Assembly: GCA_963727805.1 (NCBI GenBank)
Contig: CAVSHF010000005.1
Coordinates: 448,001-512,000, forward strand
Source of the DNA: an uncultured Nitrospiraceae bacterium
Lineage (GTDB): Bacteria > Nitrospirota > Thermodesulfovibrionia > Thermodesulfovibrionales > Dissulfurispiraceae
Direction of reading: 5' to 3'
Length of the DNA: 64,000 nt
Part shown: piece by piece, positions 32,125 to 58,078 of the stretch
How positions within the stretch are numbered: position 1 is the stretch's first letter
Layout of the letters: each line of letters opens with the position of its first letter
The notes under the pieces: generated by a model
Told to the model about the DNA's origin: nothing
The model's database searches: none
Seen by the model: only the letters and a program-made list of their open reading frames with translations
Translations under genes and position numbers: made by a program

Positions 32125-32129
32125 GTGTT

Positions 32130-40771: not shown

Positions 40772-41083
40772 TTACTTCTCCTTTGATTCAAGCATGAACT
40801 TGTACAAAGCCTGGCACCTATCTAATCTTCGCAGATAAACTCTTCTCTGTATTTCGTCTTGTTTTTGGATAATTGGCTTTAACCTGTCACACCTATCAAT
40901 CAACTGCGTTAGCTGATCCTTTGTTAAGTCCATCGCGTCATCAGTCTGTGAGCAGACCGCCTCAAATTCCCTTTGCCACGCATCCACTGCATACACAAGT
41001 CCCGGTTCTGAGAATGTCGCAGCAAAAAAAGTAGCCAAAGAGATGATACAGAATATAAAACCTATCACCCCTGATGCTTTCAT
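40772..41083 (-). CDS. Small exported helical protein, last gene of the cytochrome cluster
   Basis: Signal peptide; ATGA overlap with the upstream cytochrome; three Cys in the mature part. Confidence 0.75.
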   Translation of the reverse strand: MKASGVIGFIFCIISLATFFAATFSEPGLVYAVDAWQREFEAVCSQTDDAMDLTKDQLTQLIDRCDRLKPIIQKQDEIQRRVYLRRLDRCQALYKFMLESKEK

Positions 41084-42009
41084 TTGTCTGTTCCATGGTT
41101 GTGACCGAGGTTTTGCTTAACAGGTTGCCGTTCATTCTCACTGGATTCCGGTTGCTGAAGCGGTTCCCGTTGTTCGGGCTGATGCTCAGACTGTTCATCG
41201 ACCAACTTTGTATGGCATCTCTGACAATCAAGCAATGGAAAAGCGACTTTCCCATGGCATACACCGCAATACTTTCCTTCAAAGATCTCCGGCATGGAGT
41301 ATTTGGTTAGCCCTTTTTTCACCCCTGAGAATATTTCAGGATGACACAATTCACAACCGTTCCAAACAATATGTTTCTTATGAGAAAAGATGATCTGAGG
41401 CATCCCCTCAACTTTGGGCTCCAGAGAAAAATCTTTCTGAATTTTAAGCGATGGCCTCTTCACAGATATTCCCGGTAGAAATCCAATCGGATTGATCAAA
41501 CCTCTTTCTTCTGCCTTTTCCCAATCTATGCCGTTGCCAAACCGTTCCTTCGGCAATTTTTCAGTAAACTTACTAAAATCGTATTCTTTTTTCACCTCTT
41601 TGCCCAAGGAATGGCATCTCTCACATCTATTCAAATCCTTATGTCCATACTCCTTTGAACATGCTTCAAAGACCTTTCTGTCCTGCCATTGCATCTTACC
41701 ATTGTGACATGTACCGCAATAGTATCCTTTACTGTTGTCTGCCGCCCTAATGCCTGTCGCTCCGGCCTTCATCGCAAATGCGATATCTACGTGGCAAAGC
41801 CTACAAGTGAAATTAGATCTATGAAGCCAGTGGTCAAATACAACTGGAGCCAAATAAGCTTTTTCCGAGTAATTATTAATCACAACCCTTCCATATTCGA
41901 ACGGTAAGGGTCTTTTTTTCTTTACCCCGGTTTGAGCTAGCGTCAAGCCCGCAAAGGCAAGAACTAAAATCAGTATCACAAATACTCTCTTCATATGTTT
42001 CCTCCCCAT
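41080..42009 (-). CDS. Hexaheme cytochrome with two c7-type triheme modules
   Basis: VVFDHWLH, FSHKKH, six CxxCH. Confidence 0.9.
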   Translation of the reverse strand: MGRKHMKRVFVILILVLAFAGLTLAQTGVKKKRPLPFEYGRVVINNYSEKAYLAPVVFDHWLHRSNFTCRLCHVDIAFAMKAGATGIRAADNSKGYYCGTCHNGKMQWQDRKVFEACSKEYGHKDLNRCERCHSLGKEVKKEYDFSKFTEKLPKERFGNGIDWEKAEERGLINPIGFLPGISVKRPSLKIQKDFSLEPKVEGMPQIIFSHKKHIVWNGCELCHPEIFSGVKKGLTKYSMPEIFEGKYCGVCHGKVAFPLLDCQRCHTKLVDEQSEHQPEQREPLQQPESSENERQPVKQNLGHNHGTDK

Positions 42010-42058
42010 GCTGACTTAACAAGACGGTCCTCAAAAGTATTGGGCGGTCATCTCCCGA

Positions 42059-42871
42059 TTAATGCAACTGCTTCACATGACACCTCTGGCATTCGGCAAT
42101 CGGGAAAGCTACATTGAGATGACATAAACCGCAGTATTCCCCCCTCGCGATCTCGAACATCGTATATTTCACGTCACCTCTCTTGACGCTCGGAAAAATT
42201 TCGGGGTGGCAGACCTCACAGCCGTTCCACTTGGCATGTTTCTTATGGGAGAATATTATGTCTGCTGATATCCATTGGCCCCTTGCCTTGATAATGAAAT
42301 CCTCTTGCGGCTTAATCGCTTTCCTCTTCACCGATATCCCTTTTAAAAAATCAACAAGGTGAATTCTGCCCTCTTCTTCAGCTGCCTCCCAATCTATACC
42401 GTTGCCGAGTCCTTTTTTAGGGAGGCGCTCAGTAAAGGTAGCAAAGTCGTATTCTTTCTTGACTTCCTTATCGAAAGAATGACACCGGTCACAACGCTGA
42501 TCCTTCACATCCTCCGATTTGGTAGAGCAAGTCGCAAACACTTTCTTGTCTTCAAAAACAAAAGTGCCGTTATGACATGACCCGCAATAAAATCCTTTTT
42601 CGTTTGTTTCAGCTTTGATTCTGGTTCCCCCCGCCTCCATGGCGAACCCAATATCCACATGACACAGCCTGCAGGTAAAACGAGCTCTGTGGAGCCAATG
42701 ATTAAATACCACAGGAGCACGGCCGGCACGGACCGAATAATTCTTTATAACGACCTGTCCATATTCCTGAGGGGGTACCGCGGTAAAAGCGGACAGTTCA
42801 TTGTTAACGCCAAGAACTCCGCCAATGACAAGGAAAACTATGCCCCAATTAATCACTCCTCTCAATAACAT
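42059..42871 (-). CDS. Hexaheme cytochrome with two c7-type modules (paralog of 41080-42009)
   Basis: VVFNHWLH, GNGIDWE, FSHKKH, six CxxCH. Confidence 0.9.
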   Translation of the reverse strand: MLLRGVINWGIVFLVIGGVLGVNNELSAFTAVPPQEYGQVVIKNYSVRAGRAPVVFNHWLHRARFTCRLCHVDIGFAMEAGGTRIKAETNEKGFYCGSCHNGTFVFEDKKVFATCSTKSEDVKDQRCDRCHSFDKEVKKEYDFATFTERLPKKGLGNGIDWEAAEEEGRIHLVDFLKGISVKRKAIKPQEDFIIKARGQWISADIIFSHKKHAKWNGCEVCHPEIFPSVKRGDVKYTMFEIARGEYCGLCHLNVAFPIAECQRCHVKQLH

Positions 42872-42878
42872 GGCATCA

Positions 42879-43787
42879 CTATTGTACTATACTGAATATC
42901 TCAACTCTGTTATTGTCCCTGTCTGCAATGAACAGATCGCCGCTGTTTGTGATGCATATTTGGGTCGGATAGTGAAGAAAGCCCTCTTTCCACCCTTGGG
43001 CCAAATGCCTTGCCTGAAAGGAGCCATCCCTGTTGACGGTAATAATCGTACTGCTGTTCTGGTCTGACAGGAATATGGTCCCCATGCTATCAATAGTGAT
43101 ATTGGCAGCGAAAGTTATGTTCTCTTTCAAGGATTTCGTCAGGGGAGTAAAACCTTGGGCGTCCTTACCGGCAGCGTATACGATGGAATTTACGCTATCA
43201 ATCAGAAATATCGCACCTTGAGCGTCCACTGCAAGATCTGATATGAAACCATATCCATCGGGAAATGGCAGCGACCGCATGAATTTGCCTGCTGGATCGA
43301 GAACCAGCACTCGTCCATTAAATATATCAAGGATATAAATAGCATCGGTTCTATCGATACTGAAGCTCCTCGGCATAAAATCAGAGGGAGCCGGTAGTCC
43401 CTGGGGTGTGATATAACCCGTTAGCGCACCCTCCGGGCTTATCCGGGCAATGCGACGCTGCTTTCCGTCAAGAACGAAGATTTCTCCCTTTGAATTCACA
43501 TGGACCCGCAGTGGATTGGACAGTCCTGAAACTGACAGCTCATCTCCCCCCTTCAATACGCCGTCAACGAACGTATACTTGAGCAGATGATTCCCCCCCG
43601 TATCGGCAACTACAACGAGCGATTTATAGTTGCAGGCGACCCCCTCTGGCAGTTTTATGGCGCCACCCTTGCTGTCAGTGTATATTGAAGCCACAAACCG
43701 AAGTTTGGTTGAGTCGGCACTGAATGCGCCAATCGGCAGGAGCAGAAGTACTACTACAGTAACCAGTTTTATTATCCTCTTTATCAT
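42879..43787 (-). CDS. Exported NHL-repeat beta-propeller protein
   Basis: Repeated P.G..../VADTG, LFIADRDNNRV. Confidence 0.88.
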   Translation of the reverse strand: MIKRIIKLVTVVVLLLLPIGAFSADSTKLRFVASIYTDSKGGAIKLPEGVACNYKSLVVVADTGGNHLLKYTFVDGVLKGGDELSVSGLSNPLRVHVNSKGEIFVLDGKQRRIARISPEGALTGYITPQGLPAPSDFMPRSFSIDRTDAIYILDIFNGRVLVLDPAGKFMRSLPFPDGYGFISDLAVDAQGAIFLIDSVNSIVYAAGKDAQGFTPLTKSLKENITFAANITIDSMGTIFLSDQNSSTIITVNRDGSFQARHLAQGWKEGFLHYPTQICITNSGDLFIADRDNNRVEIFSIVQ

Positions 43788-43791
43788 TTGA

Positions 43792-45081
43792 TCACCTCTT
43801 TAATTTAACGTGACACTGTGTGCATAATTCATTGATGGGAGAAGCATAAATCATGTACTTATGCTCGGTACCGTGAGCGCGGTGACAGCTCAGGCACTGC
43901 AGCGTAAGATTTTTGTTCCGAGGGTCTATTACCTTTTCACCGATCGGATGTGTCGAATGCTTCTGCCACTCATGACATGTACTGCACAAATCGATAACAT
44001 TCGGCTGTTTGAAAAAGTATGCATTGTCACTGGCATGGGGATCGTGACATGAGCTGCACATTCCGTCTTTTATCGGCGGATGCTTCGTCTGTGACCTGTC
44101 CTGACGCTCAATGCTATCGGCATGACAGGCGCCGCAAACTTGACGCATCGGAGCTTTTACAAGCTTGGGTTCGGCTGAAGCATGTGGATTGTGGCAGGTG
44201 AGACAGCTTTTTTTGGTCATTAGTGGCCAGTGTATCTTATTCTTGCTGAAAACATTGTTAAGCATAGAGACATGGCAATCCATGCATAACTGGGATCCCG
44301 ACTTCTTTGTCGCCAGCGGGTTCGGCGAGGTCGGATCTTGATGACATTGGCCGCACATCTTGGCTGCAACCGGTTTATGGACATTTTCAAAGAGAATGCC
44401 CGGCTTATTAGAGCCGTGCGGGTTGTGGCAGGTCGTGCAGCGAGCTTTCGCCACTGGGTAATTCATGTGCTGTTTGGCAAATATTGGCCTATTAGTAGTG
44501 TGGCATTTCAGACACAGTGACGGCACCTCATCTCTGAGGAGGAACTTCGCCTTTGTCGATGCGTGAGGGTCGTGGCAGCTCAGGCACCCCTTTTCCACCG
44601 GCGAGTGCTTGAACTTCACCTTCTGCACCGCTTCCCCCATTTCCTTATGGCAGCCGAAGCACAGCTCATTGCCTGCCTTCAACAGATTGAATTTGTTTTG
44701 GGATGAATGCGGATCATGACAGAGCACACAATTGTTTTCTACGACTACCTTATGAGAGCTTACGCTTTTTTCTGGGATCACTGTCTTATGACAGGTGCGG
44801 CAAATGGCGCTTTGGTCTGCAATAAGGAGCTTGCCGTGCTTTGAAGTATGTGGATTGTGACATCCGGTACATTCACCTGCTTTAACAGGGGTGTGAATAT
44901 AAGGATTTTTGAGCTTGTCCTGAAAGGCGACATGACAGTTCAGGCAGACCTTTCCCCTAGCCCCTATGTTCAGGTTAAACTTGTTGTCTGCTGAACTGGC
45001 AGGCGTTCCCACGGAGAGAACACAGACAATGAAAAGCAGAAGAGGCAATGTGATTTTCAAATATGAAACAGCTCCCTTCAT
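43792..45081 (-). CDS. 16-heme cytochrome c (paired CxxCHxxH repeats)
   Basis: Signal peptide; 16 CxxCH counted. Confidence 0.93.
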   Translation of the reverse strand: MKGAVSYLKITLPLLLFIVCVLSVGTPASSADNKFNLNIGARGKVCLNCHVAFQDKLKNPYIHTPVKAGECTGCHNPHTSKHGKLLIADQSAICRTCHKTVIPEKSVSSHKVVVENNCVLCHDPHSSQNKFNLLKAGNELCFGCHKEMGEAVQKVKFKHSPVEKGCLSCHDPHASTKAKFLLRDEVPSLCLKCHTTNRPIFAKQHMNYPVAKARCTTCHNPHGSNKPGILFENVHKPVAAKMCGQCHQDPTSPNPLATKKSGSQLCMDCHVSMLNNVFSKNKIHWPLMTKKSCLTCHNPHASAEPKLVKAPMRQVCGACHADSIERQDRSQTKHPPIKDGMCSSCHDPHASDNAYFFKQPNVIDLCSTCHEWQKHSTHPIGEKVIDPRNKNLTLQCLSCHRAHGTEHKYMIYASPINELCTQCHVKLKR

Positions 45082-47060
45082 TTCTTACCTCCCACCACGT
45101 GGCATTCTTCACATGTCCGAGCATCAAAGGGCGGATGAACAACTTCTTTGAAGAAGTGCGCATCCTTTGATGCATGGGGGTCATGACACGTCCTGCAGTC
45201 GATCACATCGGGATTAATACCGATGTGTGCTTTGCTGAAGGCCTCGTCTTTCAGATCGTGACATTGACTGCATATATCTTTAAGAGGTTGGACAAGCAGT
45301 GTCCGCTCGCCCGAATAATGAGGCTTGTGGCAGGTCAGACAATCGCTGGCGGCCGGCGGATGGGCCTTTTCCTTCTTCATTTTCTCACTCTTGTCCTTAT
45401 GGCAGGAGAAGCAGAGATCGGGACCTTCCGCCAGCAGAAGCTTATTCAGTTTCGACTTATGCGGGTTATGGCATTTTGTGCACTCACCCGATGCAAGAGG
45501 CTTGTGTTTGCTCACGCTCCCGTCAAGTCCTTTGCCGAGTTCAACATGACACGAAAGGCAGAGCTTATTCTGCTTATCAAGAAGCACCCCGGAAACATCG
45601 CTTGAATGCGAGCTATGGCAGGAAAAGCACATGCCACCTGCAAATGGGACGTGGTTTGAACCGCCTTTAACTTCTTTCATGAGCTCGGCGTGGCACTTTG
45701 CGCATAACTGCGCTCCGTCAGCCTTCAGCAGTTTCTCTGTTGCCGATCCGTGAGGGCTATGGCAGGCGGCACATTGCGCTTTCCGCACCGGATCATGCAT
45801 ATAAGTTTTTTGGAACCGCGTTTCAGCATCGATATGGCAGCTAAAGCAGACCTTGTCCATTCTGTCCTTCATCATGCCCTGCAGATTCGAACCATGCGGA
45901 TCATGACACGTGCTGCACTTTTGCTCGGCAAACGGCGGGTGAATGACCTTGCTCTTCAGCACCTCTTTCAACTTAATGTGGCAGGTCAGGCAGATCTCGC
46001 CATCCTTGACCTGCAGGAGCCGCGGATTTTTTGCAGCATGCGGTGCATGGCATGACAGGCAGCCCTTCCCACCTGTAACCGCGGAGTGGCTAAAGGCAGG
46101 TTTTTCACTTTTATCTTTATGACATATGAAACAAAGATTATTGCCGCCTTGCATGAGCAGCCTTGGATTTTCCGATGAGTGCGGATTATGGCATGATAGG
46201 CAGAGGCCTTTTTTGAACGGTGCATGATCAACCGTCCCACCTGCCCTTAAAGATGCTGAATCATGGCACATTTCGCACATAGTGCTACCCTTTTGTGTCA
46301 CCTCAAATGGCTTCTGTGACTGGGCCGCTACGTGGCATACATCACATGTCCCCGACGCAACAGGGTTATGCACACTCGTCTTCAGCAGTTTCGGCTGTTC
46401 CGATGCATGGGGATTATGGCAAACAGTGCACGATTTGGTTTCCACCGGATACTCCCCGTGCGCCTTCTTAAAAACTGCAGCGCTCTTGTCATGACAGGAA
46501 AGGCATAATGGGGTCTCCGGCTTTATAAGCAGATTTGTCTCGTCGGAGCTGTGTGAGAAATGACATGCCTTGCAGCCCTCTGTTTGCATCACTTTATGAA
46601 TAACTTTCTTTTCAAACATCTCCTTCTTATGACACTGGAAGCAGACATCATTGCCCGTCGCATTCAACAAATGGCTCGCTTGTGATGCATGGGGATTATG
46701 GCATTGCGTACATTTGCCCGACTTCAACACAGAATGGACATGAGGTTTAGATAGACCGAGCTTCTCTTTTGCGTGGCAGGTATAACAGAGCTCGTTGCCC
46801 GCTTTTTTAAGGACGTTCTTTGGCACCATTCCATGCCTTATGTGGCATTCTTCGCACTTTTTCTCTTTCACCACGGCATGAACGCTCTTCATCGAAAAGT
46901 ATTTTTCAGCAAACGTTGTATGGCAGTCCAGGCATTCTTTACGGGTAAATTTCCTCTCGGCAGCACTCCCAAACACTGCAAAAAGAATAACCATGCTGCA
47001 CAAGAGCCCTGCCACCACCGCTAATCCCTTCTTATGTCGTGCCAATGAGCTCCTCCTCAT
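45078..47060 (-). CDS. 26-heme cytochrome c
   Basis: 26 CxxCH counted; start MRRSS after gagggag RBS. Confidence 0.93.
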   Translation of the reverse strand: MRRSSLARHKKGLAVVAGLLCSMVILFAVFGSAAERKFTRKECLDCHTTFAEKYFSMKSVHAVVKEKKCEECHIRHGMVPKNVLKKAGNELCYTCHAKEKLGLSKPHVHSVLKSGKCTQCHNPHASQASHLLNATGNDVCFQCHKKEMFEKKVIHKVMQTEGCKACHFSHSSDETNLLIKPETPLCLSCHDKSAAVFKKAHGEYPVETKSCTVCHNPHASEQPKLLKTSVHNPVASGTCDVCHVAAQSQKPFEVTQKGSTMCEMCHDSASLRAGGTVDHAPFKKGLCLSCHNPHSSENPRLLMQGGNNLCFICHKDKSEKPAFSHSAVTGGKGCLSCHAPHAAKNPRLLQVKDGEICLTCHIKLKEVLKSKVIHPPFAEQKCSTCHDPHGSNLQGMMKDRMDKVCFSCHIDAETRFQKTYMHDPVRKAQCAACHSPHGSATEKLLKADGAQLCAKCHAELMKEVKGGSNHVPFAGGMCFSCHSSHSSDVSGVLLDKQNKLCLSCHVELGKGLDGSVSKHKPLASGECTKCHNPHKSKLNKLLLAEGPDLCFSCHKDKSEKMKKEKAHPPAASDCLTCHKPHYSGERTLLVQPLKDICSQCHDLKDEAFSKAHIGINPDVIDCRTCHDPHASKDAHFFKEVVHPPFDARTCEECHVVGGKK

Positions 47061-47402
47061 GTATTCTCCCTCAATTTGGATTTGAATATTGTCCATTCAT
47101 AACTCGGAACGTCGATTAAGTCTTTTGATAGCAGGAAATTGTTTATAACAGTGTTTCCCCAACTGTGCACTCTCAGGTTATCGCTCTGTTCATTGCATGC
47201 GCTGACGGGACTTTGGAGGATGATCGTTTCTGCACGTGAAAAGCGTAGATCAGAAGGTTTTGCAATTGCACTTGCAACCGACAAAAAAAGGACCTCGGAA
47301 CCGCAGCCTAAAAGTCTGCGACCTTTCGGGGAACCCTGTGCAGAAATGCCGATTTCTTCCCACATAAAATAATTCCTGTATGTAGTCTGTAACTACTATA
47401 TA

Positions 47403-49193
47403 TTACCCGGATTTGGAAAGGTAAATCTTTACGTCGCCAGCCGCTCTCAGCCTGGCCGCATATTCTTCCACAGAATCTTTAAGCTTCTTGTTGTATACCT
47501 TTTCCGCTATTTTCTGCTGAACCGCAGTCAGGGTTTCAGCCTTCGGAGGCACAATCTGCTTTACAATAAGTACATAAAAATAGCCCCCGGGACTCGCAAA
47601 GAGTCTCGCATCATCCGCTTTGGCCCCGCCCACAACCTTCTGTATCCCCTCCGGCAGGCTTTTAACAGTCAGGATATTCCCCTCAAACGAGAGCGAGTCC
47701 TTGGCATCTTTCTTCACCTGCCCTTCGGCATTGCTCAGCAGCCAATTATAGTCGGTGCCCTTTCTCAGTTTCTCCATGGCATTTTCAGCATCTTCTTTTT
47801 TTGTAAAAGCAAGACTGTTCAATCTAATCATCTCTGGAGAGGAGTATTCGTTTATATGTTCTTTGTAATACCCCTCAATCTCATCTTTACTTAATTTCAC
47901 GTCGGGGGCTACAACCTTTTCGACGAACGTGCCGAAAATAACAGAGTCTCTGTATTCTTTTATCAAGGTCTTGAATTCATCAGTCTTGTCCACACCCTGT
48001 CTGGCGGCTTCGCTGTCCAGAAGCGCTTTATCAAGCATGTTCCCGAGCACTTCATATTTCTTTTCATTGATTCGCTTCTCGGCAACGGCCTCTTGTATGC
48101 CATGAAAGAATGACTTCTTGATGGCGGCAGCCAAAATACCAACGGTGACAGGCTTCTCTCCCTGTATTACCGCGACAGTCCTCTTGTCCTTCGAGAGTTT
48201 TTCGAGGCCGGGTTTAGCGGCTTCAAAATCAAGGTTTTTGAGTAGCTGTTTGTTGACTTTCACATATTTCCTAATGAGCGCTGCCATGTACTGCCGAATC
48301 ATTTTGGCCTTCTGGTCGGCAAGCGACCGCTGCTCCGCTTTTGCCTTTGCCTCCGCATTGTCCACATAGCGAACATCTATCAGCTTGACCACCGAATATC
48401 CCGAATTATCCTTGCCAGCCATAATCCTGATGACAGGACTTACAGAACCTGTCTTCATCACCGCCACGGCATCAGCCACCTGCGGGAGGAGATATGCGGG
48501 CGCGATGAACTCTTCCTGCTCATTTCCCTTCGCTTTTTTATCTGCTACAGCCTTTGCAGCCAGTTCCTCAAAGTTCTTCCCGGCCTTGATATCTTCCAGC
48601 ATATTCTTCGCGTCTTCTTCCTGGAAGAATAGAACGGATCTGATCTTCCATTCCTTGATCATGTCTCTGTATAGTGCCTCAACCTCTTTAGGGTCCGCCC
48701 TGGCGTCTTTCGCAGCTCCTTGCAGGAGCAGTTCCCTGCGTAACTGTTTCTCATAAGCGCTGACCGTATCCGTCACTTCAGGCAGCTCGTCGATACCCAT
48801 CCCATGGGCTTCCTGGACAATCAGCCTTACGTTAATAAGGCGATCGAGTATTGAAGCATAATCCAGCTTCTGAGCTGCCGTCTGTTCGCTCCTCTCTTCA
48901 TGAGAAGCAATCAGCGCGTCCCTGACTTCCTTAAGTGTGATGCTCTCGTCGTTTACCTTTACCACGGGGACGTTGGAAAATATTGGTGAAAAAAGCGGCA
49001 CGCTGAGACCTATATTTACCTCACCAGGGCCGGACTTTGGAGCAGGCTTTGCCTCGGGACCAGCTGTCTCGGATGTTTGAACGTAGCTTTCTGCAGGCGC
49101 TTTCTTATCTTCTGCGTACGCCGGGATAGTGAAGTAAATGGGCAGCATGAGTGTACAGACAAACACAATGATCATTCTCATTATTTTCTCCAC
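47403..49193 (-). CDS. SurA/PrsA-like periplasmic chaperone with two parvulin-like repeats
   Basis: VKVNDESITL, ILDRLINVRLIVQEA, GKNFEELA, VSPVI, repeated architecture. Confidence 0.8.
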   Translation of the reverse strand: MEKIMRMIIVFVCTLMLPIYFTIPAYAEDKKAPAESYVQTSETAGPEAKPAPKSGPGEVNIGLSVPLFSPIFSNVPVVKVNDESITLKEVRDALIASHEERSEQTAAQKLDYASILDRLINVRLIVQEAHGMGIDELPEVTDTVSAYEKQLRRELLLQGAAKDARADPKEVEALYRDMIKEWKIRSVLFFQEEDAKNMLEDIKAGKNFEELAAKAVADKKAKGNEQEEFIAPAYLLPQVADAVAVMKTGSVSPVIRIMAGKDNSGYSVVKLIDVRYVDNAEAKAKAEQRSLADQKAKMIRQYMAALIRKYVKVNKQLLKNLDFEAAKPGLEKLSKDKRTVAVIQGEKPVTVGILAAAIKKSFFHGIQEAVAEKRINEKKYEVLGNMLDKALLDSEAARQGVDKTDEFKTLIKEYRDSVIFGTFVEKVVAPDVKLSKDEIEGYYKEHINEYSSPEMIRLNSLAFTKKEDAENAMEKLRKGTDYNWLLSNAEGQVKKDAKDSLSFEGNILTVKSLPEGIQKVVGGAKADDARLFASPGGYFYVLIVKQIVPPKAETLTAVQQKIAEKVYNKKLKDSVEEYAARLRAAGDVKIYLSKSG

Positions 49194-49491: not shown

Positions 49492-50664
49492 TTATGATTC
49501 CATAGAAGACTGAGTGATGAAAAGATTTTTCTGCAGCATTCTCAAGATCCTCGTGGTGATTCTGGAAGTCAACTCGTGGGCAGTGTATACTTTGCCCCAG
49601 TCAAAGGCGTATATGTAGTCATCCCCTTCATTATGACTTCTCGATGCCCATATGATCCTTCCGCTTGTGAATATCCCGCCTGTCCTGTATATGACATCCA
49701 TCGAGAATTCCACCTTTGCTGCCTCTGCCGAACTTTGAGGATCCAGATATTCAAAATCGTTGCCGATCAGCACAAGGTCTGTGTCAAGGAGGCTGCAGAG
49801 AAGATCGATGTCGGAGATTGATATGCCTTCAGGCGTTACCAGTCTCATGTTCAAAAGGTTCTGCCGTACAATTCCGGGCTCGATAACCTCGAAGTCTCCG
49901 CTTTTCACAAGTTTTTCGACAAAATTCAATGCAATCAAGTCACCTGCGTTCCGTCGCATACTTCTATTTGTAAATGGGACCACGGCAATGCTATGTCGTT
50001 TGCCCTTATGAAGAACAGCCGATGAGAAGACGGCCCTGGGACTATATCCCCACCCGCCTTTATTCAAAGTTCCGGCTTTGCCGGAAAAATTATCCACGAT
50101 GGAGTCATAGAGCCGCCCAAACGCCTTTGCTACCAGTTTTTCAGGGTCTTCAATCAACCAGATGCCTAATATCCCCGGTGACTCATCGCCCGCAAGCGAG
50201 ACACTATCTATCCAGAGAATCGACACCTGTTCTCCGGTTGAAACAAGGCGGCTGAGCACAGCGATTTTCGGCGGCGCCTTCTCATCGTATAATTCGATAT
50301 CAGTGATAAGCACTGCACCGATGTCTAACTCAGACTTGAAGGCTTGTGCTGTCTCGATATCTATGCCGCCTGTATAACGCAGTCTGTGGGCCGCCATAAA
50401 CCGATTGAGAGTTGTATCATCCAAGATGGAAAATCCCAAAGACTTTAGATGATCAACTGCCGATTGCCGGAAGGCTTTGAGCGGAACCGCCTTTCCGCTC
50501 AGGTTTTGAAATGGCAGGACTGCTATTTTGAGCTGGCCGATATTAGATTGTTTCGGGAGCGCCTGTTGTCTTGAGCCTGTTGCACAACCGAACAGAATGA
50601 GCAGGCTCAGGCATACCGGAATAACAAAAAAATATCTATTTAAAAAGCTTATCGAGCAGATCAT
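49492..50664 (-). CDS. Lipoprotein with two PelC/CsgG/DUF799-like domains
   Basis: Lipobox LFGC; IAVLPFQNLS and IAVVPFTNRS repeats. Confidence 0.75.
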   Translation of the reverse strand: MICSISFLNRYFFVIPVCLSLLILFGCATGSRQQALPKQSNIGQLKIAVLPFQNLSGKAVPLKAFRQSAVDHLKSLGFSILDDTTLNRFMAAHRLRYTGGIDIETAQAFKSELDIGAVLITDIELYDEKAPPKIAVLSRLVSTGEQVSILWIDSVSLAGDESPGILGIWLIEDPEKLVAKAFGRLYDSIVDNFSGKAGTLNKGGWGYSPRAVFSSAVLHKGKRHSIAVVPFTNRSMRRNAGDLIALNFVEKLVKSGDFEVIEPGIVRQNLLNMRLVTPEGISISDIDLLCSLLDTDLVLIGNDFEYLDPQSSAEAAKVEFSMDVIYRTGGIFTSGRIIWASRSHNEGDDYIYAFDWGKVYTAHELTSRITTRILRMLQKNLFITQSSMES

Positions 50665-51226
50665 TCACTGCTTTTTCGGTCACATCGTTCATAGGGGTAC
50701 CGCCTCCACCAAGGAGCCTGTCTTTTAGTTTTATTCCTCCTTTTGTGGAAGATGCTGTCCATACCACCCTTCCTGTTTGACCATCGAGTATCTGTAGGCT
50801 CATCGAAATGACGTTTGCTTCTGCACTTCCCGAACGCATTTCGCCATATTCTCTTATTACACCGGTGACCACAGCATTCACTTTCAAGTTAGATGCCAAG
50901 CTAATCACTTCTTCAGTGGACGGTGCAACAGGATTGGCTATATTGATCCTTGAGAGAGCGCGGTAGACTTCCCCGGGCGGCAGCACGTAAACACTCCCCG
51001 TCTCCATCAGCATGGGAGTGAAAACGTCTCTAACTCTATCGCCGGCCATTGAGTCCCTTGAGAGATTTGCAAATGGCATCACAGCCACCGTCTGTATCGA
51101 GGTGAAGTCCATATTCTGGTCTCGCCAGACCTCGCCATGTCCGCCACATCCCGATAGGGCGCTCACAGCAACCAAAAGGATAATCAGTTTAAATATGAAT
51201 GTTTTCATGTACTTTACAGTCTCCAT
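50636..51226 (-). CDS. PelC/CsgG/DUF799-like outer-membrane lipoprotein
   Basis: Lipobox LSGC; VAVMPFANLS, VVTGVIREY, GRVVWTAS; start may be 51208. Confidence 0.8.
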   Translation of the reverse strand: METVKYMKTFIFKLIILLVAVSALSGCGGHGEVWRDQNMDFTSIQTVAVMPFANLSRDSMAGDRVRDVFTPMLMETGSVYVLPPGEVYRALSRINIANPVAPSTEEVISLASNLKVNAVVTGVIREYGEMRSGSAEANVISMSLQILDGQTGRVVWTASSTKGGIKLKDRLLGGGGTPMNDVTEKAVNDLLDKLFK

Positions 51227-51296
51227 TTAACCATTCTAACATTAATACCATCTTCCTTCAACTTCGTTGCAAATATTTCCAAATGCCCAGCAAATT

Positions 51297-53606
51297 TCAG
51301 AATGTAGCATGGAGTATCGCATTAAACGTGTCCTGGCTTGTGTGCTGGGTTAAGCTTGTTATGATGGACTGTGACTTAAAGGCCAGATATGAAATGGTCA
51401 GAAATGCATACCTGCTGATATTCCAGCGAATGCTTGGCGAGAGTAATGTATCCTTCGTACTGTTCAATGAGGACAGATTTTGATTGTAGCTGCAATTGAA
51501 CAGGAGTGTGCCATCGGGGAACGGCGACCAGTTTGCGCCGTAACTCGTAAGCGTTGTCTGCTGCACATTGACTCCGGAAAAGATACCGTATGACCCGAAA
51601 AGGCTCAACGTAGGGAAAGGAGTATAAGTGAATGATATGTCGCTTCGTGTGGATATCGTCTTGGAATCGGGTGCGCCTCCTCCCGTTGTATTGGAATTAG
51701 TCCACGAATAGTCAGCGTTTATAGTCAGAACCCTGTAGGGAACGAGACTGAGTGTGGAGGTCATAATTTCACTTTTGTTTTCTTGAAGTGTCGCCGAGGT
51801 GCTCCAGCTTGCCCCCCCTGAGATCGATGCATTCACCCCTTTATATAATTCGGCCAGATTGGTGAGGAATAGCGAGGATGTGTCATTCGGCTTACCTCCT
51901 AACTGTTCCTTCCTGTTGCTGAAGACAAGTGAGTCACTCAGCGTCCTGATGGGTACCGCAGTAAGGGATGCATTACTGATATATGCGACGCCGGTACCCT
52001 GCAAGCCGTAGCTATCCTCCCTTGCCACCCTAGCGTTTGTAGAAAATACCGGGTTGAACTTGTAAGCCCCGGACAGTCCATTGGTGATAATGTAGCTTTT
52101 CTGGCTCGGTTGCCCGACAGCGAAGCCTGAACCCGCATTCGACGTCTCTGAATAGAAGGCCGACATGTCGTAATAAAGAGTCGGGCTGTTGAGTATTCTC
52201 GTCCTCACGTTCAGGTTATAGGTCTGTGAAGTCGTGGTAGTCTTGAATTTCGCATTTTGCGAAGAAGTTGCCGTATCGAATGCCTGGATTTGGCTGATCA
52301 GGATGTTATTGACATCCACTCCCGGCACAGCAGCCGGCACAGGGAGAGGCCTTGTTACCACCTTGATGAACTGGGTTGTTACTTTTTGAAAGGTAATTCG
52401 AAACGTCCTATCTATCTGCGAGAATATAAAAGTCGCCGCCGGCTGGTAGAGGGTCCACTGCTGCGTGGCTGTGGGATTCACCCCTTGCCCGATATTGGGG
52501 TCGGAGCTTATATAGACATCCCAGGAATACGATGTGGCTATACTGCTGACATCCTGATTAACAGTGACAAAAATGGCATTGACTTCAGTGGGCGTAGCAA
52601 AGGCCACCCCCATATCACGAGGGTTGCTGTCGGCCGGGTTCGTCTGGGGAAATCCGATATTCAGCTTTCCCACATTTCCGATGAAATCGCCGCCGTTAAC
52701 AAGGAAAGGTGTGGACTTCATCGCATCATTGGCCGGCGTATGAGGCGGCAAATCCACGCCTAACGGTGAGTCGGCTGTCGAGTCGACAGCGTATAGACCC
52801 GAAACGGGAAACAGGCTGACTTGTATCTGGCTGCTGCCCCCGCCACTGGCAGCAGTTGTGTCCTGCTGGGAGATGTCCCCATCGGCGGTGAGCGACACGC
52901 GGTTGTTAAGAAAAGAATGCCAATAGATGAATCTGCCCTCATTGGCGATTTGCTTTGTATCTGTATTCTGCAGTTTGTCCTTTGAATCGTTGTAAGTAAA
53001 CTGATAATTCAGATCGAGGTTGCTTATGGGGGTAAATTTGGAGCCCACGATGAACCGGTCGCCGATTGTATCCTGAAGGGCACGCTGTGCGTCATATGTC
53101 TCTGTCCTCTGCCCCGTCAAATCCAACTCCGGCAGCCCCGCAGGCTTGAAGGTGAACAGCCCGCTGTAATTATTATTGATAATGGTCTGGGGTGCCGAGC
53201 CTGTGGAATTCGTCGTAATCTGGAGCCTGTTATAAGTGATCACCGCTGAATAAGGTGCGCTGTTTAGAGTAAGGGTGACATTCGGTTGCAAGGTCTTTGT
53301 CCTGGACGTTGTGTCGACGTTATCCGTGCTGGACTTTGTCAGATCATCCTGAAAAATACCATTCGCAGAAAGTATGAGGTTGGGAAAGAGTGTCTTCTTG
53401 AGCATAAGGGTATATTGCTGCAGGTAATCATCCGTGGTCGTGCTGGAAACTTTTCCATTTCCACTGTCGGTCTTCGATCGGGTATTAGAATAGTCCCATT
53501 CCGCATTAACACTTATATCGTCGGCACAGGCACTTCCGGGGAATGCTGCCGTATTTATGATAGCAACGGCAAGCAGAAATAAACAGAACAGCCATTGTCG
53601 TATCAT
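51297..53606 (-). CDS. Large outer-membrane beta-barrel with a central inserted domain
   Basis: Signal peptide, amphipathic beta-strand pattern at both ends, C-terminal ...LHATF. Confidence 0.75.
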   Translation of the reverse strand: MIRQWLFCLFLLAVAIINTAAFPGSACADDISVNAEWDYSNTRSKTDSGNGKVSSTTTDDYLQQYTLMLKKTLFPNLILSANGIFQDDLTKSSTDNVDTTSRTKTLQPNVTLTLNSAPYSAVITYNRLQITTNSTGSAPQTIINNNYSGLFTFKPAGLPELDLTGQRTETYDAQRALQDTIGDRFIVGSKFTPISNLDLNYQFTYNDSKDKLQNTDTKQIANEGRFIYWHSFLNNRVSLTADGDISQQDTTAASGGGSSQIQVSLFPVSGLYAVDSTADSPLGVDLPPHTPANDAMKSTPFLVNGGDFIGNVGKLNIGFPQTNPADSNPRDMGVAFATPTEVNAIFVTVNQDVSSIATSYSWDVYISSDPNIGQGVNPTATQQWTLYQPAATFIFSQIDRTFRITFQKVTTQFIKVVTRPLPVPAAVPGVDVNNILISQIQAFDTATSSQNAKFKTTTTSQTYNLNVRTRILNSPTLYYDMSAFYSETSNAGSGFAVGQPSQKSYIITNGLSGAYKFNPVFSTNARVAREDSYGLQGTGVAYISNASLTAVPIRTLSDSLVFSNRKEQLGGKPNDTSSLFLTNLAELYKGVNASISGGASWSTSATLQENKSEIMTSTLSLVPYRVLTINADYSWTNSNTTGGGAPDSKTISTRSDISFTYTPFPTLSLFGSYGIFSGVNVQQTTLTSYGANWSPFPDGTLLFNCSYNQNLSSLNSTKDTLLSPSIRWNISRYAFLTISYLAFKSQSIITSLTQHTSQDTFNAILHATF

Positions 53607-53627
53607 TACCGGCGACCGCCTCCTATC

Positions 53628-55055
53628 CTATCGTTCGCCCATTACGGTCACCCAGTATGGGTTAGCATCAACGTCTAGTTCCGCGATTACCTTTCTGCTC
53701 GTAAGATTAATGATCTTGACCAGCCTCTTTTCAGGGACGACAACGCAGAGGGTGTTCTCGTCGTTATCTATTGTCATAGAGACAACCTCTCCCTCCACAG
53801 GGATGAAGTCGCCAGCAATGAGAGAAAAGGGATCATGAACCTCGATGTCCCTTCCTCCGGTCAGCCCGATATACAGTATATTCGTCTGCGGATCTACCTT
53901 GATCGCGCTTCCTCCAGTACCAAGATAAACCCTGTTGCTGAGTGAGTTCGAAGCCGGATCGCGTATTGTCAGATACGGTGATCGCTGATGGAGCACGTAA
54001 AGTTTGTCTTCCCTGCTGCTGAACTGTCCGATAATGGGACCCGGTTCAGTGCGAATTGTTTGGACTGCCTGGGCAGTGACGGCACGACCGGACAGGAATG
54101 CAGAAAGGTTAATTACCGAAATGGTGTTGGAAAGAGAATTGAACACATAAGCCCTGCTCCCAGTCCTGTTGATGAGTATCGAATGAGACCCTTCTCCGAC
54201 GGGTACCCTCGCTATTGCGACCAGCGAGTTTGTATTGATAATGCTCACTGTCTGTGAGCCCTTGTTCACCGTAAGCAAAAACTTCCTGTCGGCGGTGAGC
54301 GCCAATTCACCGGGGCCGTCCCCTCCATTGAGAAATATTCTGTCGACAATCGTGCCTGACAAGAGGTCGATGATACCGACTGTGTCATCACCCTCAAACG
54401 CAACATAGGCCTTGCGCAAAGTCTGGTCCAGTGCTATACCCCTCGGCTGCTGACCTGTGGCAATGATCCCTTTCACGAGCCCTGACTGTTTGTCAAAAAC
54501 TGTAATAGTATTGGCCCCACTGTTGGATACATACCCGATAAGATTAGCCATCGTTGTACTTGGGATGGAAACAGTGAATACCGGCCTGAAACTGTAGTTC
54601 TCCTGCACCGCCTTGGCATGCTGATAGACAAGGCTGAGGAGAAGGGCCCTTTTCCTGGTCACTTCAAAGAGGAATTCGTTCTTCTGAGGCTCAGACGGCA
54701 CAAGAAGTGCCGCCTCACCCTCATCCGCAGTTACTTTCGCACTCTTCGCCTTTACGGAAAGGCCTGTATATTGACCTGGAGGAAGCTGGCCCGAGGCAAA
54801 GAAACGTTGTCTCTTGAGACTGCTTCCTTTCAGCGTTGCAAACGAAAGAGTAAGGGGAAACTCCTTGCCGTCAATGCGCGTCGCCGTAATGCTCTCGATT
54901 TCGATGGTAACCCTGTCTGCTTCCTGGGAGAAGGGCTGCAGATATACGAAGACCTCGCCATCATTTTCGAGCACCGGTTTCACCTGAGCTTTTATCACCT
55001 CACAGCCTGTGGTAAAGAGGAAGAAACAAAGTACAATGACGAGTGACCTTTTCAC
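53628..55055 (-). CDS. YVTN/YncE beta-propeller lipoprotein
   Basis: Lipobox TTGC; GYVSNSGANTITVFD, AYVFNSLSNTISVIN. Confidence 0.85.
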   Translation of the reverse strand: MKRSLVIVLCFFLFTTGCEVIKAQVKPVLENDGEVFVYLQPFSQEADRVTIEIESITATRIDGKEFPLTLSFATLKGSSLKRQRFFASGQLPPGQYTGLSVKAKSAKVTADEGEAALLVPSEPQKNEFLFEVTRKRALLLSLVYQHAKAVQENYSFRPVFTVSIPSTTMANLIGYVSNSGANTITVFDKQSGLVKGIIATGQQPRGIALDQTLRKAYVAFEGDDTVGIIDLLSGTIVDRIFLNGGDGPGELALTADRKFLLTVNKGSQTVSIINTNSLVAIARVPVGEGSHSILINRTGSRAYVFNSLSNTISVINLSAFLSGRAVTAQAVQTIRTEPGPIIGQFSSREDKLYVLHQRSPYLTIRDPASNSLSNRVYLGTGGSAIKVDPQTNILYIGLTGGRDIEVHDPFSLIAGDFIPVEGEVVSMTIDNDENTLCVVVPEKRLVKIINLTSRKVIAELDVDANPYWVTVMGER

Positions 55056-55433: not shown

Positions 55434-55470
55434 CAATATGGCGCCGGTCTCTCTGACCGGCGCCATATTG
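55434..55470 (-). terminator. Perfect 16-bp hairpin after the omcS-like gene
   Basis: caatatggcgccggtc-tctct-gaccggcgccatattg; no strong U-tract. Confidence 0.75.
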
Positions 55471-55503
55471 AATGCTCAAGGCGTCTATACTTTGTCTGCT
55501 AAA

Positions 55504-56910
55504 TTAGTCTTTCGCGTGGCACTTGTTGCAAAGTACGCGCTGATTCGCTGCAAATACACTTGACGGCCTGCCGTCCATTGCGTTTTTGTACTGTGCGCTG
55601 GAATATAATACTCCGCGTTGCCCCGGCGTAAGGTCATTACTTAGGTAGCTACCAGCTATCGTCGTCAGCTCGTCAGCAGCATCAAATCTGGTCATATTCG
55701 CCCATGCTGAGGCATGAGCCTTATGGCAGGAAAGACACGACACACTTTGAGAGCCGGTGACGGCTGGAGCGTTGTTGACAGTGGTGGCAGTTCCAGCAGC
55801 CAAGGCTACTAAGGATACGCCTTCTACGGGAACCAATGATGAGTAAAGATTGGTGCCGGTCAAGTTGCCGGAGTATACATAGGCGTTATAATTAGAAGCG
55901 AGGGTGTTAGTGCCGGCGGTGGCGACCCCCAGTAATGCAGTGCCGTCAGAGGTGCCGGCAGGGTGAATAAAGCTGCCCATTCCGCCTTTTATGTTGGTGT
56001 GACAGTTCTGGCACCATTCAGACATACCCTTGCCATATTGAACCACAACCTCCGTAGCAGCAGGCTGACCAGCCGTGATACCGAAGGTAGTGGCCACTAT
56101 GTCATAGTTGGTGGGTGCTATCGCAGTAGGGGAATCTTTGGCAAATGCATATGAGCTGCCGACAGACGCCGGTGCATACCCTGCGCCTGCAAGCAGCCTG
56201 TAAACGCCAACCGCAGAGCCTGTTGGTGCCAAAACACCATAGGACCCGGAACCATTAGTAGAAGAGGTTGTACCACCGGTGAATCCGCTTGTAAAGACGG
56301 TGCTCTTGATGTCACTTGTCTGCGTCGGATCTCCAGTAGTATGTCTGTATGTGCCGTGAGGGTCATGGCAGCTCGAGCAATGCAGGTTTGCCTGCGGATA
56401 GCTTCCGCCCGGTGCGGTCTGGAGCGTGATAGCATAACCGGCAGACGATCCCAAACCCCAGTCAGCCGCATTGATGTTGTGGCCGCGACGGCTCTTATCA
56501 TAGGATGAAGTCGCAGAAGCAGGAGTTGCCAGCAGCCAGCCGAAATCACCGCCGGGGGTAAAATGGGTCGGAAGGCCGGTTGTAACTGCATCAGGTGACA
56601 TAATATGATAACCTGAGCCAGGGGTTTCGGCATTGGCGTGGCAGTTCAGACAGGTAGAACTCTGGTCACTGCCCTGAAGCAGAAAAGCGTTACCCGAAAA
56701 CTGCGCCGAGGCTCCTTTATAGCTGAAGCCTGTCTGGGCTTTTACCCCGTGGCCTCCCATAACGCCTGTGGTACCGCTTGCATTGTGCATGGTATGGCAG
56801 CTGTCGCAAGTGGCGACACCGCCATCGTGAAAAGCATAGGAAATGCCGCTTAACCCGAGAGTCACCATCGCTGCTGCCATGATAACCATTAAAACTTTTG
56901 TTGCTTTCAT
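55504..56910 (-). CDS. omcS: OmcS/OmcT-type hexaheme extracellular cytochrome (candidate nanowire subunit)
   Basis: Signal ...SYA|FHDGGVATCDSCHTMHN; LLQGSDQSSTCLNCH, TPGGDFGWL, LHCSSCHDPHG.YR, YRLLAG, YGKGMSEWCQNCH, VSCLSCHKAHAS, QRVLCNKCHAKD; RBS aggagg. Confidence 0.88.
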   Translation of the reverse strand: MKATKVLMVIMAAAMVTLGLSGISYAFHDGGVATCDSCHTMHNASGTTGVMGGHGVKAQTGFSYKGASAQFSGNAFLLQGSDQSSTCLNCHANAETPGSGYHIMSPDAVTTGLPTHFTPGGDFGWLLATPASATSSYDKSRRGHNINAADWGLGSSAGYAITLQTAPGGSYPQANLHCSSCHDPHGTYRHTTGDPTQTSDIKSTVFTSGFTGGTTSSTNGSGSYGVLAPTGSAVGVYRLLAGAGYAPASVGSSYAFAKDSPTAIAPTNYDIVATTFGITAGQPAATEVVVQYGKGMSEWCQNCHTNIKGGMGSFIHPAGTSDGTALLGVATAGTNTLASNYNAYVYSGNLTGTNLYSSLVPVEGVSLVALAAGTATTVNNAPAVTGSQSVSCLSCHKAHASAWANMTRFDAADELTTIAGSYLSNDLTPGQRGVLYSSAQYKNAMDGRPSSVFAANQRVLCNKCHAKD

Positions 56911-57050
56911 CGAAGTCCTCCTTTTTTTTTGTTGCAGATTATTATTTCTTGTGAGTCGGCAAAACAACTTCTTAAGATGCTCATTGTTCAGTGTTTGCTT
57001 GGCTTATCCCGTCCGTCACCTCCTGATAAACTGAAATTGCTTTGCCTGCT

Positions 57051-57066
57051 AGCAATCACAGTACCG
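57051..57066 (-). promoter_or_regulatory. Sigma54 promoter for the omcS-like gene
   Basis: cGGtactgtgattGCt, GG-N10-GC. Confidence 0.7.
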
Positions 57067-57082
57067 TGTATTTTCATGTGCA

Positions 57083-58048
57083 TTATTGATCAAAGTTCAC
57101 GGCGAAAACGCTGACACCGCGCCCTCTCAATTGACTTACATAAACCTTGCCGTTGTTATCCACCGCCAGGTCATTGGGGACGATCAGGTTATCCGTGTTG
57201 AACCCCCTATACCCGAACTCCGTCTTGAAGTTATAGTCCCGGTCAAAGACTATGACTGCGCATTTGAGCTTGTCAGTTACATAAATATTCCCCTTGTTAT
57301 CCTCGGCAATCCCGGAAACAATGTTGAATTTCCCGGGAGAACTGCCGCGCTTGCCGAAAGATGTCAACGTGCCGTCGGGAGACACTATGTAAACACTGAA
57401 CATAGAGGGCATCGTGAAGAGGATCCTACCGCCATTGTCAACCGTGAGACCGAAGATGCCCGTATTGGACTGAATTTTTTTCTCGTCGAATTTAATCAAC
57501 GCTGCAAGATCGTAGCCGGCCTGGAAAATACCGTTTGAGTCGGTTACGGCAACCTTCATCTTTGAATCGCTTGCAAGGTAAAGGCGGCCGTTTTTATAAA
57601 AAAGTCGGTTGGGAAAAAAGTCGGATGCCATTTTCGGCGGGAAGCCCTTGAATTCGGTCCTTGAAACAAATTCACCGCGGTAGTTGCACTTCGTCAGTGT
57701 CGGCTGAGAGCCGGGGTTCTGATAATTAAGGAGGAGGAAATTGCCTTCATTATCTACCACGAAATCGACAACGTTACCAAACTGACCTGTGTCGAAATCA
57801 AAGATCTGCATCCCGAACTTGTTAAAAATCACTATGGACTGCGTTACCGGATCGGCGACCGAGACTTCTCCAGTAGCATCGTCAATACTCATCCGCACCC
57901 AGTTAAATGGTGCAATCCCGTCAAAATTGGAAAGACTATAAAGATATGAGGCCTTTGCTGCCAGAACATCCACCGGCATCAACGCTATTGTCATGATGAG
58001 CGCTAACGCCAAGGTTAGAAGAGTATTGTTTAGTCGCTTTCTTTCCAT
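57083..58048 (-). CDS. Exported NHL-repeat beta-propeller protein upstream of omcS
   Basis: FGKRGSSPGKF...GIA.D.KGNIYVTD; VPNDLAVD..GKVYV. Confidence 0.88.
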   Translation of the reverse strand: MERKRLNNTLLTLALALIMTIALMPVDVLAAKASYLYSLSNFDGIAPFNWVRMSIDDATGEVSVADPVTQSIVIFNKFGMQIFDFDTGQFGNVVDFVVDNEGNFLLLNYQNPGSQPTLTKCNYRGEFVSRTEFKGFPPKMASDFFPNRLFYKNGRLYLASDSKMKVAVTDSNGIFQAGYDLAALIKFDEKKIQSNTGIFGLTVDNGGRILFTMPSMFSVYIVSPDGTLTSFGKRGSSPGKFNIVSGIAEDNKGNIYVTDKLKCAVIVFDRDYNFKTEFGYRGFNTDNLIVPNDLAVDNNGKVYVSQLRGRGVSVFAVNFDQ

Positions 58049-58062
58049 GATAAAAAAGATAA

Positions 58063-58078
58063 AGCAATGTTTGTACCA
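58063..58078 (-). promoter_or_regulatory. Sigma54 promoter motif
   Basis: tGGtacaaacattGCt. Confidence 0.65.

Follow-up and report, generated by a model that had tools for sequence, protein, structure and literature searches.

An apparently complete homologue of the Geobacter omcS–osc gene cluster in a Nitrospirota genome, with a predicted filament-forming hexaheme cytochrome

Cytochrome nanowires have been put forward as drivers of mineral respiration and of electron transfer between species, and to our knowledge all nanowire structures and genetics so far come from a few Desulfuromonadia and two archaea. Here, a cluster of 13 genes is described on a 64,000-nucleotide stretch of DNA, referred to below as the window (contig CAVSHF010000005.1, positions 448,001 to 512,000, from the genome assembly GCA_963727805.1 of an uncultured Nitrospiraceae bacterium). 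Judged from gene content, sequence comparison and predicted folds, the cluster appears to be a full homologue, in a member of the Nitrospirota, of the omcS–osc locus of Geobacter sulfurreducens, and export is predicted for its hexaheme cytochrome g02, which probably assembles into a heme filament outside the cell; the probability of this reading is put at about 0.68. Since the locus has the Geobacter nanowire gene set in a complete and intact copy, the Nitrospirota host likely makes conductive filaments.

The cluster occupies the minus strand from 58048 to 40772 and consists of 13 consecutive, co-oriented open reading frames (ORFs), all of them intact in the ORF list. Counting CxxCH heme-binding motifs on the translations gives a total of 60, distributed as 6 in g02, 26 in g08, 16 in g09 and 6 in each of g11 and g12, with none in the other eight proteins. 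A chance clustering of such motifs was considered and rejected because they sit in proteins with strong family matches. By eye, the translations of all 13 genes begin with an export signal (a hydrophobic signal peptide) or a lipobox, the latter being FTTGC in g03, LSGC in g05 and LFGC in g06. No Pfam or NCBIfam family matched g04, g06 or g13, and the sole family match of g05, to the GNA1162-like family of Pfam, is below threshold. A 102-residue ORF at 47057–47365, between g07 and g08, is probably spurious. An earlier note on this DNA, made from the sequence without database searches, had listed 13 co-oriented genes with 60 CxxCH motifs; both numbers were reproduced, and its domain calls (NHL, YVTN lipoprotein, SurA-like chaperone, c7-type hexahemes) agree with the Pfam and NCBIfam assignments, the SurA_N match being weak.

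The predicted subunit g02 most likely starts at the ATG at 56910, which has an AGGAGG 6 nt upstream and corresponds to the 468-residue form in the protein collection, and not at the TTG at 56967. In a phmmer search, g02 aligns end to end with OmcS (PDB 6ef8/6nef; E 6.5e-72, query residues 46–487 to chain residues 1–407), the identity to OmcS being about 40%. A predicted signal peptide ends with SYA, the cut falling between GISYA and FHDGG, so that the putative mature protein would begin at the position aligned to residue 1 of mature OmcS. This predicted N-terminus, FHDGGVATCDSCHTMHN, aligns with FHSGGVAECEGCHTMHN of OmcS and keeps the counterpart of His16, which is H42 in the 468-residue protein (H61 in the 487-residue frame). 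The two proteins have in common six aligned CxxCH motifs, the N-terminal pattern FH.GGVA.C..CHTMHN and the C-terminal pattern QR.LCNKCHAKD. When 28 members of the OmcS family (44–87% identity) were aligned, all six CxxCH motifs and the six distal histidines of the bis-His hemes, including the equivalent of His16, were invariant in 28 of 28. The family as a whole is large, with 3075 proteins at E <= 1e-10 among 8000 candidates scored. In OmcS, His16 reportedly ligates a heme of the next subunit in the filament, a finding attributed to Wang and colleagues in 2019. What had earlier been called an OmcS-like hexaheme is thus a true member of the OmcS family, matching the whole of 6ef8 and bearing the His16 equivalent.

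To obtain a reference locus, 87 genomes from the family of a Geobacter-labelled locus were searched; 28 gave a match, and the genome G055 was chosen, which has four matches, three of them clustered. The ORF at L084:6652-7944 of this genome is taken as authentic OmcS because it reaches 938 bits in the comparison with 6ef8, along chain residues 1–407. In a tblastn comparison of the 13 window proteins with about 28 kb around omcS of G055, g01–g10 proved to be collinear, one for one, with the omcS–osc region (GSU2505...GSU2493) at 35–56% identity (Table 1), and g11–g13 had no match in that region. The shared order is an NHL protein, a hexaheme, a YVTN lipoprotein, a barrel, two PelC-like lipoproteins, a peptidyl-prolyl isomerase (PPIase), a 26-heme and a 16-heme cytochrome and a second NHL protein. 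The likeness to the companion genes of G. sulfurreducens, which the earlier note had pointed out and wished to see checked by a reciprocal search, thus holds gene for gene as far as g10.

The operon has been named osc, for omcS companion, with OscH assigned to folding, OscE, OscF and OscG to secretion and OscD to morphology (PMC13194489). The same source equates oscC with GSU2501, oscI with GSU2495 and oscJ with GSU2494; the other osc letters were given here to genes by consecutive order, a presumed mapping. GSU2500–GSU2493 have been tied to nanowire maturation and secretion in G. sulfurreducens, and 26 hemes are ascribed to GSU2495 (10.1101/2025.11.06.686851). In the window, an OscD-like propeller lipoprotein stands directly after the hexaheme, and candidates for OscE, OscF and OscG, an OscH-like PPIase, counterparts of OscI and OscJ and a closing NHL protein are all in place.

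Table 1. Genes and hairpin of the Nitrospirota cluster in the order of transcription, with counterparts in G. sulfurreducens and tblastn identities in the reference genome G055 (aa, amino acids; the ordinals count the eight genes that follow oscC).
Feature	Coordinates	Strand	Predicted product or structure	Family matches and motifs	G. sulfurreducens counterpart	Match in G055
g01	57083..58048	-	exported NHL/beta-propeller protein	Pfam Reg_prop and NHL; NCBIfam ScyF-like NHL	GSU2505, by position	NHL gene upstream of omcS, 43% over 290 aa
g02	55504..56910	-	OmcS-family hexaheme cytochrome, 468 aa, predicted filament subunit	6 CxxCH		OmcS 40%; OmcT 38%; hexaheme at GSU2501 position (OscC) 38%
hairpin	55434..55470	-	16-bp perfect stem, 34 nt past the g02 stop codon; found by eye, folded separately
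g03	53628..55055	-	YVTN beta-propeller lipoprotein, seven-bladed	TIGR02276 YVTN repeats; Lactonase/YNCE propeller matches; 0 CxxCH	OscD (GSU2500)	first, 39% over 471 aa
g04	51297..53606	-	outer-membrane beta-barrel, 769 aa, inserted domain of about 190 aa		OscE (GSU2499), by position	second, 35% over 718 aa
g05	50636..51226	-	lipoprotein, 196 aa, one PelC/GNA1162-like domain	Pfam GNA1162-like, 20.9 bits (cut-off 25.9)	OscF (GSU2498), by position	third, 56%
g06	49492..50664	-	lipoprotein, 390 aa, two tandem PelC-like domains		OscG (GSU2497), by position	fourth, 42%
g07	47403..49193	-	periplasmic PPIase chaperone	Pfam Rotamase_2 74.1 bits, Rotamase 27.6 bits; SurA_N below cut-off	OscH (GSU2496)	fifth, 38% over 545 aa
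g08	45078..47096	-	26-heme cytochrome, N-terminal hydrophobic anchor or signal	13 paired-CXXCH repeats	OscI (GSU2495)	sixth, 53% over 672 aa
g09	43792..45081	-	16-heme cytochrome	paired-CXXCH repeats	OscJ (GSU2494)	seventh, 52% over 336 aa and 49% over 139 aa
g10	42879..43787	-	exported NHL propeller	Pfam NHL 55.2 bits	GSU2493, last gene of the eight-gene block	eighth, 47% over 304 aa
g11	42059..42871	-	hexaheme cytochrome, two c7-type triheme domains (GSU1996 family)	TIGR04257 105 bits, two stretches
g12	41080..42009	-	second c7-type hexaheme, tandem paralog of g11; low-complexity acidic/Gln-rich tail	TIGR04257 107 bits, two domains
g13	40772..41083	-	small exported protein, 103 aa, 4 Cys	no family

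The two loci are not identical. That of G. sulfurreducens encodes three hexahemes, whereas the window has one and is without OmcT and without a separate OscC; it also lacks the GSU2502 gene (1035 residues) and has a 448-nt gap between g02 and g03. The genes for OmcT, OscC and GSU2502 are described as variable even inside Geobacter (10.1101/2025.11.06.686851), so that they probably do not define the osc cluster. OscD of G055 has one CxxCH, whereas its counterpart in the window has none, nor does the motif occur in any of 51 further homologs (0 of 51) taken from related loci. On the other side, the window adds two c7-type hexahemes and a small protein that are absent from the Geobacter block. 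Further, the subunit comes from another clade of the OmcS family, and the host is a member of the Nitrospirota with dsrA and aprA.

The barrel and the longer lipoprotein were modelled with AlphaFold2. The model of g04 (alignment of 45 homologs; predicted local distance difference test score, pLDDT, 86.4) shows long antiparallel strands and, at about residues 260–450, an inserted domain. A Foldseek search with it gave 221 PDB matches at E <= 0.001, and among the matches listed there are large outer-membrane barrels throughout, namely TonB-dependent receptors, PapC/FimD ushers, LptD and MtrB (6r2q_B), which has the best template-modelling (TM) score (0.37/0.43). Since these scores are low, the assignment as a large outer-membrane barrel is supported, but no particular family is. 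The model of g06 (31 homologs, pLDDT 88.0) has two PelC/GNA1162-like domains, with Foldseek matches to PelC (5t0z/5t10, TMt 0.68–0.79), GNA1162 and LpoB, and amounts to two copies of the g05 domain (E 1e-12 and 0.006). CsgG is a weaker match. The barrel and the PelC/CsgG-like lipoproteins proposed before are thus borne out by the predicted folds. A similar arrangement is known from the PelB–PelC exopolysaccharide pore (5T0Z, 5T10, 9H80), which likewise has PelC-fold lipoproteins, as g05 and g06 have PelC-fold domains beside a large barrel; the window proteins differ from it in having no sequence-level family membership, and their cargo would be a heme protein and not a polysaccharide. The subunits of another nanowire, OmcE, are tetrahemes unrelated in sequence to the OmcS-type hexaheme. 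Nevertheless, OmcE clusters resemble the present one in combining the subunit and a large barrel with pairs of multiheme cytochromes and of propeller lipoproteins.

The host genome (3.89 Mb in five contigs, rated 100% complete) was placed by its RpoB, which was compared with five genomes. Four of them matched, the Thermodesulfovibrionales-labelled L041 giving no RpoB match: identity is 84% and 82% to two Nitrospirota-labelled genomes (metagenome-assembled genomes, MAGs, of a Nitrospira sp. and a Nitrospirota bacterium) and 59% each to Anaeromyxobacter oryzae and the Geobacter genome that has OmcS. Such values exclude the host from the Geobacteraceae, as had been suspected from its housekeeping genes. 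Both DsrA and AprA are encoded, with scores of 515 and 923 bits that exceed the respective cut-offs of 393 and 642. On these marker genes, the host is a sulfur-metabolising Nitrospirota bacterium and not a member of the Geobacteraceae.

The distribution of the cluster was followed by a scan of one genome per species, which gave at least 661 pattern matches, at least 611 of them encoding a relative of the hexaheme; 73 loci were kept with 10-kb flanks. By label, 20 of these are of Nitrospirota type (16 isolates), nine belong to Geobacteraceae, four to Anaeromyxobacter(aceae) and three to Pseudomonadota/Proteobacteria, one is named only as a bacterium, and the remaining 36 are other Thermodesulfobacteriota or deltaproteobacterial loci. 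Near the hexaheme, homologs at >=50% coverage were found for g01 in 55 of the 73 loci, for g03 in 53, g04 in 49, g05 in 48, g06 and g07 in 42 each, g08 in 31 and g09 in 33; for the later genes these counts are too low because the 10-kb flanks end. Thus, the order NHL–hexaheme–OscD...OscH recurs in 42–55 of 73 related loci across several phyla, within the limit set by the flanks. Within the host lineage, the copy number of the subunit gene varies: a Nitrospirota-labelled genome of the same family (L023) has two full-length OmcS-family copies and a third as two pieces in one 422-residue frame, and another relative (G034) has five OmcS-family matches.

The osc cluster for nanowire assembly has been presented as “widespread and ancient” (Shen et al. 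2025, Cell Chem Biol 32:239), OmcS homologs are reported as widespread in diverse bacteria (PMC10954620), and in 2021 Thermodesulfovibrionia MAGs were reported to carry OmcS genes (PMC8478452). The non-Geobacter host, in which the earlier note had seen the novelty, is therefore no ground for calling the locus new: Nitrospirota labels are found on 20 of the 73 loci retained, and 53 of the 73 have an OscD-like gene adjoining. A comparable case is the OmcS-like DA_402 of Desulfurivibrio alkaliphilus, which is predicted to polymerise and is induced more than 100-fold in iron oxide respiration (PMC12545173, Nature 2025). Like g02 in its dsr-bearing host, it is an OmcS-family cytochrome of a dsrAB-bearing bacterium outside Geobacter; unlike g02, it comes from another phylum and from a sister clade with a seventh motif, and Desulfurivibrionaceae-labelled homologs are 33–35% identical to g02. 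The locus is an intact example of a described and widespread system, with a lineage-specific c7 appendage and a minimal layout with a single subunit.

The appendage consists of g11 and g12, which are 57% identical to each other, and the small protein g13. Among solved structures, g12 matches the dodecaheme GSU1996 (3ov0, E 3.5e-30), with further matches to 3oue, 3ouq and 1rwj. GSU1996 (3OV0, 3OUE, 3OUQ, 1RWJ) and PpcA–E are built of the same c7-type triheme domains; GSU1996 has four of them and PpcA–E one, whereas g11 and g12 have two, hence six hemes, and lie inside a nanowire operon. A c7 hexaheme homolog occurs within 10 kb of an OmcS-like gene in only 6 of the 73 loci, at varying position and strand, and a g13 homolog next to a c7 hexaheme in three (L023, L060, L061). 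Elsewhere, the host genome encodes a 12-heme c7 protein and has four small frames for PpcA-like trihemes. PpcA–E are reported to donate electrons and so charge OmcS wires (PMC10954620), and the genomic PpcA-like trihemes and 12-heme protein fit this charging route.

By analogy with G. sulfurreducens, the products of the cluster may cooperate as follows. The g02 protein would cross the inner membrane by Sec and acquire six hemes, and the OscH-like PPIase g07 would hold it in an assembly-competent state. It could then leave the cell through the OscE-like barrel g04, capped on the periplasmic side by the PelC-like lipoproteins g05 and g06, which would correspond to OscF and OscG. Outside, the subunits would join head to tail, with His42, the equivalent of OmcS His16, ligating a heme of the neighbour, while the propellers g01, g03 and g10 might act on filament morphology. 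Electrons would be passed across the periplasm to the filament by g08 and g09 and, in this lineage, perhaps also by g11 and g12. Since the host has dsrA and aprA, such a wire would couple its sulfur-based energy metabolism with minerals or with the cells of a partner, electron flow being possible in either direction.

A number of observations weigh against polymerisation of g02 and favour the view that it is an OscC- or OmcT-like monomer of the periplasm or the cell surface, which the osc-like genes would mature, export or anchor with no long filament being formed, and which is perhaps part of a porin–cytochrome type conduit with the 26- and 16-heme proteins. Filament formation is regarded as proven for OmcS itself only, and OmcT, OmcJ and GSU2501/OscC are described as having no known function (10.1101/2025.11.06.686851). 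The position of g02, directly before OscD, is that of OscC, which is tabulated as periplasmic (PMC13194489). In sequence, g02 is about equally distant from OmcS, OmcT and OscC, and its mature form of about 442 residues is some 35 longer than that of OmcS (407), owing to three insertions. In a 74-row tree from a quick search, the four G055 paralogs (OmcS, OmcT, OmcJ and OscC) fall into one 9-row clade (support 96), and g02 into a separate 16-row clade (support 100) with metagenomic and Nitrospirota-type sequences; it does not group with OmcS (GSU2504) to the exclusion of OmcT, OmcJ and OscC. Being apart from all four, g02 is co-orthologous to the Geobacter paralogs as a group, not orthologous to OmcS alone. 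The inter-subunit histidine, offered earlier as a test of filament formation, is present together with clear OmcS homology, but it does not discriminate: as far as the alignment goes, it is invariant throughout the family, including paralogs with no known filament, and so is no predictor of which members polymerise. The best TM match of the barrel g04, MtrB, belongs moreover to the Mtr porin–cytochrome complex. Even for Geobacter, the need for OmcS wires is disputed, since in some studies cells grew on anodes and reduced Fe(III) oxide without them (PMC13194489), and of 15 sequencing runs listed for the stretch, 13 with part of it and one with half or more, no carrier of the stretch is an RNA run. 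Against a monomeric g02 stands that it is the sole OmcS-family gene found in the host genome and hence the only candidate cargo for the conserved machinery. All heme ligands are kept, that of the OmcS inter-subunit contact included, and in 12 Geobacter genomes the block always comes with an adjacent hexaheme that has been proposed as a possible uncharacterised nanowire (10.1101/2025.11.06.686851). Nor is g02 specifically OscC-like, because the OscC branch is long (0.97), of odd composition and unstable in placement: a constrained tree in which the eight rows OmcS, OmcT, OmcJ and five relatives stay together without OscC was not rejected (+27.6 log-likelihood against the free tree; p-AU, from the approximately unbiased test, 0.79). 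On balance, a non-polymerising g02 is considered unlikely, though far from negligible.

Another question is which way the electrons flow. Conduction along multiheme chains is reversible, and it is possible, if tentatively so, that the filament is built as proposed and used mainly for electron uptake, from a syntrophic partner by direct interspecies electron transfer (DIET), from reduced minerals or from metallic iron, with sulfate or sulfite as the terminal acceptor; this use is compatible with the structural reading. The DsrA and AprA of the host speak for it, as does the high expression of OmcS homologs in methane-oxidising DIET consortia (PMC10954620). On the other hand, the dsrAB of this host may work reductively or oxidatively, and it is during electron export to iron oxide that the OmcS-like gene of the dsr-bearing D. 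alkaliphilus is induced (PMC12545173). It is very improbable that the cluster arrived by recent transfer and now lies silent as a functionless relic. Its distribution among relatives is indeed patchy, the g02 query finding matches in one of seven other genomes of the genus, three of 18 of the family and none of 12 from other families of the order, and an IS256 transposase lies in the window at 887–2107. However, 39 kb separate the transposase from the cluster, none of the 13 frames is interrupted and every heme motif is kept, and the GC content of the cluster (0.45–0.50) agrees with that of the genome (0.45–0.49). In addition, the closest relatives of the osc proteins (g01 and g03–g08) are found in a genome of the same family at 61–81% identity (55% for the hexaheme), against 82% for RpoB, which fits inheritance within the lineage. 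Finally, the preferred reading of g02 as a filament subunit can be carried further, to an ancestral and minimal form of the OmcS system in which a single cluster-adjacent hexaheme forms the wire, c7 charger cytochromes are included in the same operon, and a sulfur-metabolising Nitrospirota bacterium trades electrons with minerals or with partners such as methane-oxidising archaea. This extension is speculative and, taken as a whole, rather improbable; if true, it would settle whether hexahemes in the OscC position are nanowires.

For specialists, the locus holds no surprise and reveals no new kind of system. As a clean, intact, single-subunit version of omcS–osc in a genome rated complete, it is nonetheless well suited to heterologous expression, by which one could ask if wires are made from a hexaheme at the place of OscC and if the assembly machinery works across phyla. 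The locus further strengthens the case that Nitrospirota of the Thermodesulfovibrionia type in sediments and aquifers may join in iron cycling or direct electron exchange.

As to expression, the hairpin after g02 is strongly folded (centroid -31 kcal/mol; minimum free energy -32.8; z -6.78 against 200 shuffles), has no T-run, was not called in the terminator scan and heads the gap between g02 and g03. It is possible that it serves as an attenuator setting the ratio of subunit to machinery, so that more subunit than machinery would be expressed. Rfam gave no match at the gathering score in the whole window and none at E <= 1 over 54900–58500; thus, no cyclic-dinucleotide riboswitch was found there. 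Scans of 40500–58700 yielded 34 promoter-like sites against 25.3 +/- 4.4 in shuffled sequences and 16 terminator-like sites against 16.8 +/- 4.8, counts too near those of the shuffles to be usable. The best promoter-like match of the region, TTGAAA-17-TATAAT (11/12), lies on the minus strand at 49270–49298 in the 298-nt gap before g07, which hints at an internal promoter for g07–g13, the scan as a whole being not above chance.

The cluster is flanked on one side by genes for GDP-mannose and GDP-fucose synthesis (37360–40550, plus strand; phosphomannomutase, Gmd and Fcl) and on the other by at least four glycosyltransferase genes (59184–63965). Glycosylation genes are reported downstream of OmcE nanowire clusters, and those flanking the present cluster may be linked to the filament or may merely form an exopolysaccharide or lipopolysaccharide locus.

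A second candidate electron conduit is encoded on the minus strand at 28311–33710. It comprises an ExtKL-type multiheme cytochrome (28311–29606) with one in-frame TGA read as selenocysteine (NF040886, 420 bits at 28692–29606 and 106 bits at 28311–28676), a 601-residue cytochrome with nine CxxCH motifs (29901–31706) and a DUF3373 protein (32130–33710, 464 bits), which may be the porin of this conduit. A further cytochrome of 208 residues, with seven CxxCH motifs in paired-CXXCH repeats (36605–37231, plus strand), adjoins a single-domain response regulator (36078–36452). The regions 8773–16806 and 33960–35486 form a dense signalling block with PAS histidine kinases, a GGDEF–EAL protein (9983–11887) and hybrid kinases/response regulators; the gene at 33960–35486, upstream of the cytochrome genes, encodes a response-regulator c-di-GMP phosphodiesterase of the NosR family type. 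Near the start of the window, the IS256-family transposase gene mentioned above (plus strand, 339 bits) adjoins the truncated 3′ end of an efflux outer-membrane factor gene, and a 992-residue protein with a pro-kumamolisin activation domain and a BACON domain, likely a secreted protease of the sedolisin type, is encoded on the minus strand at 4295–7273.

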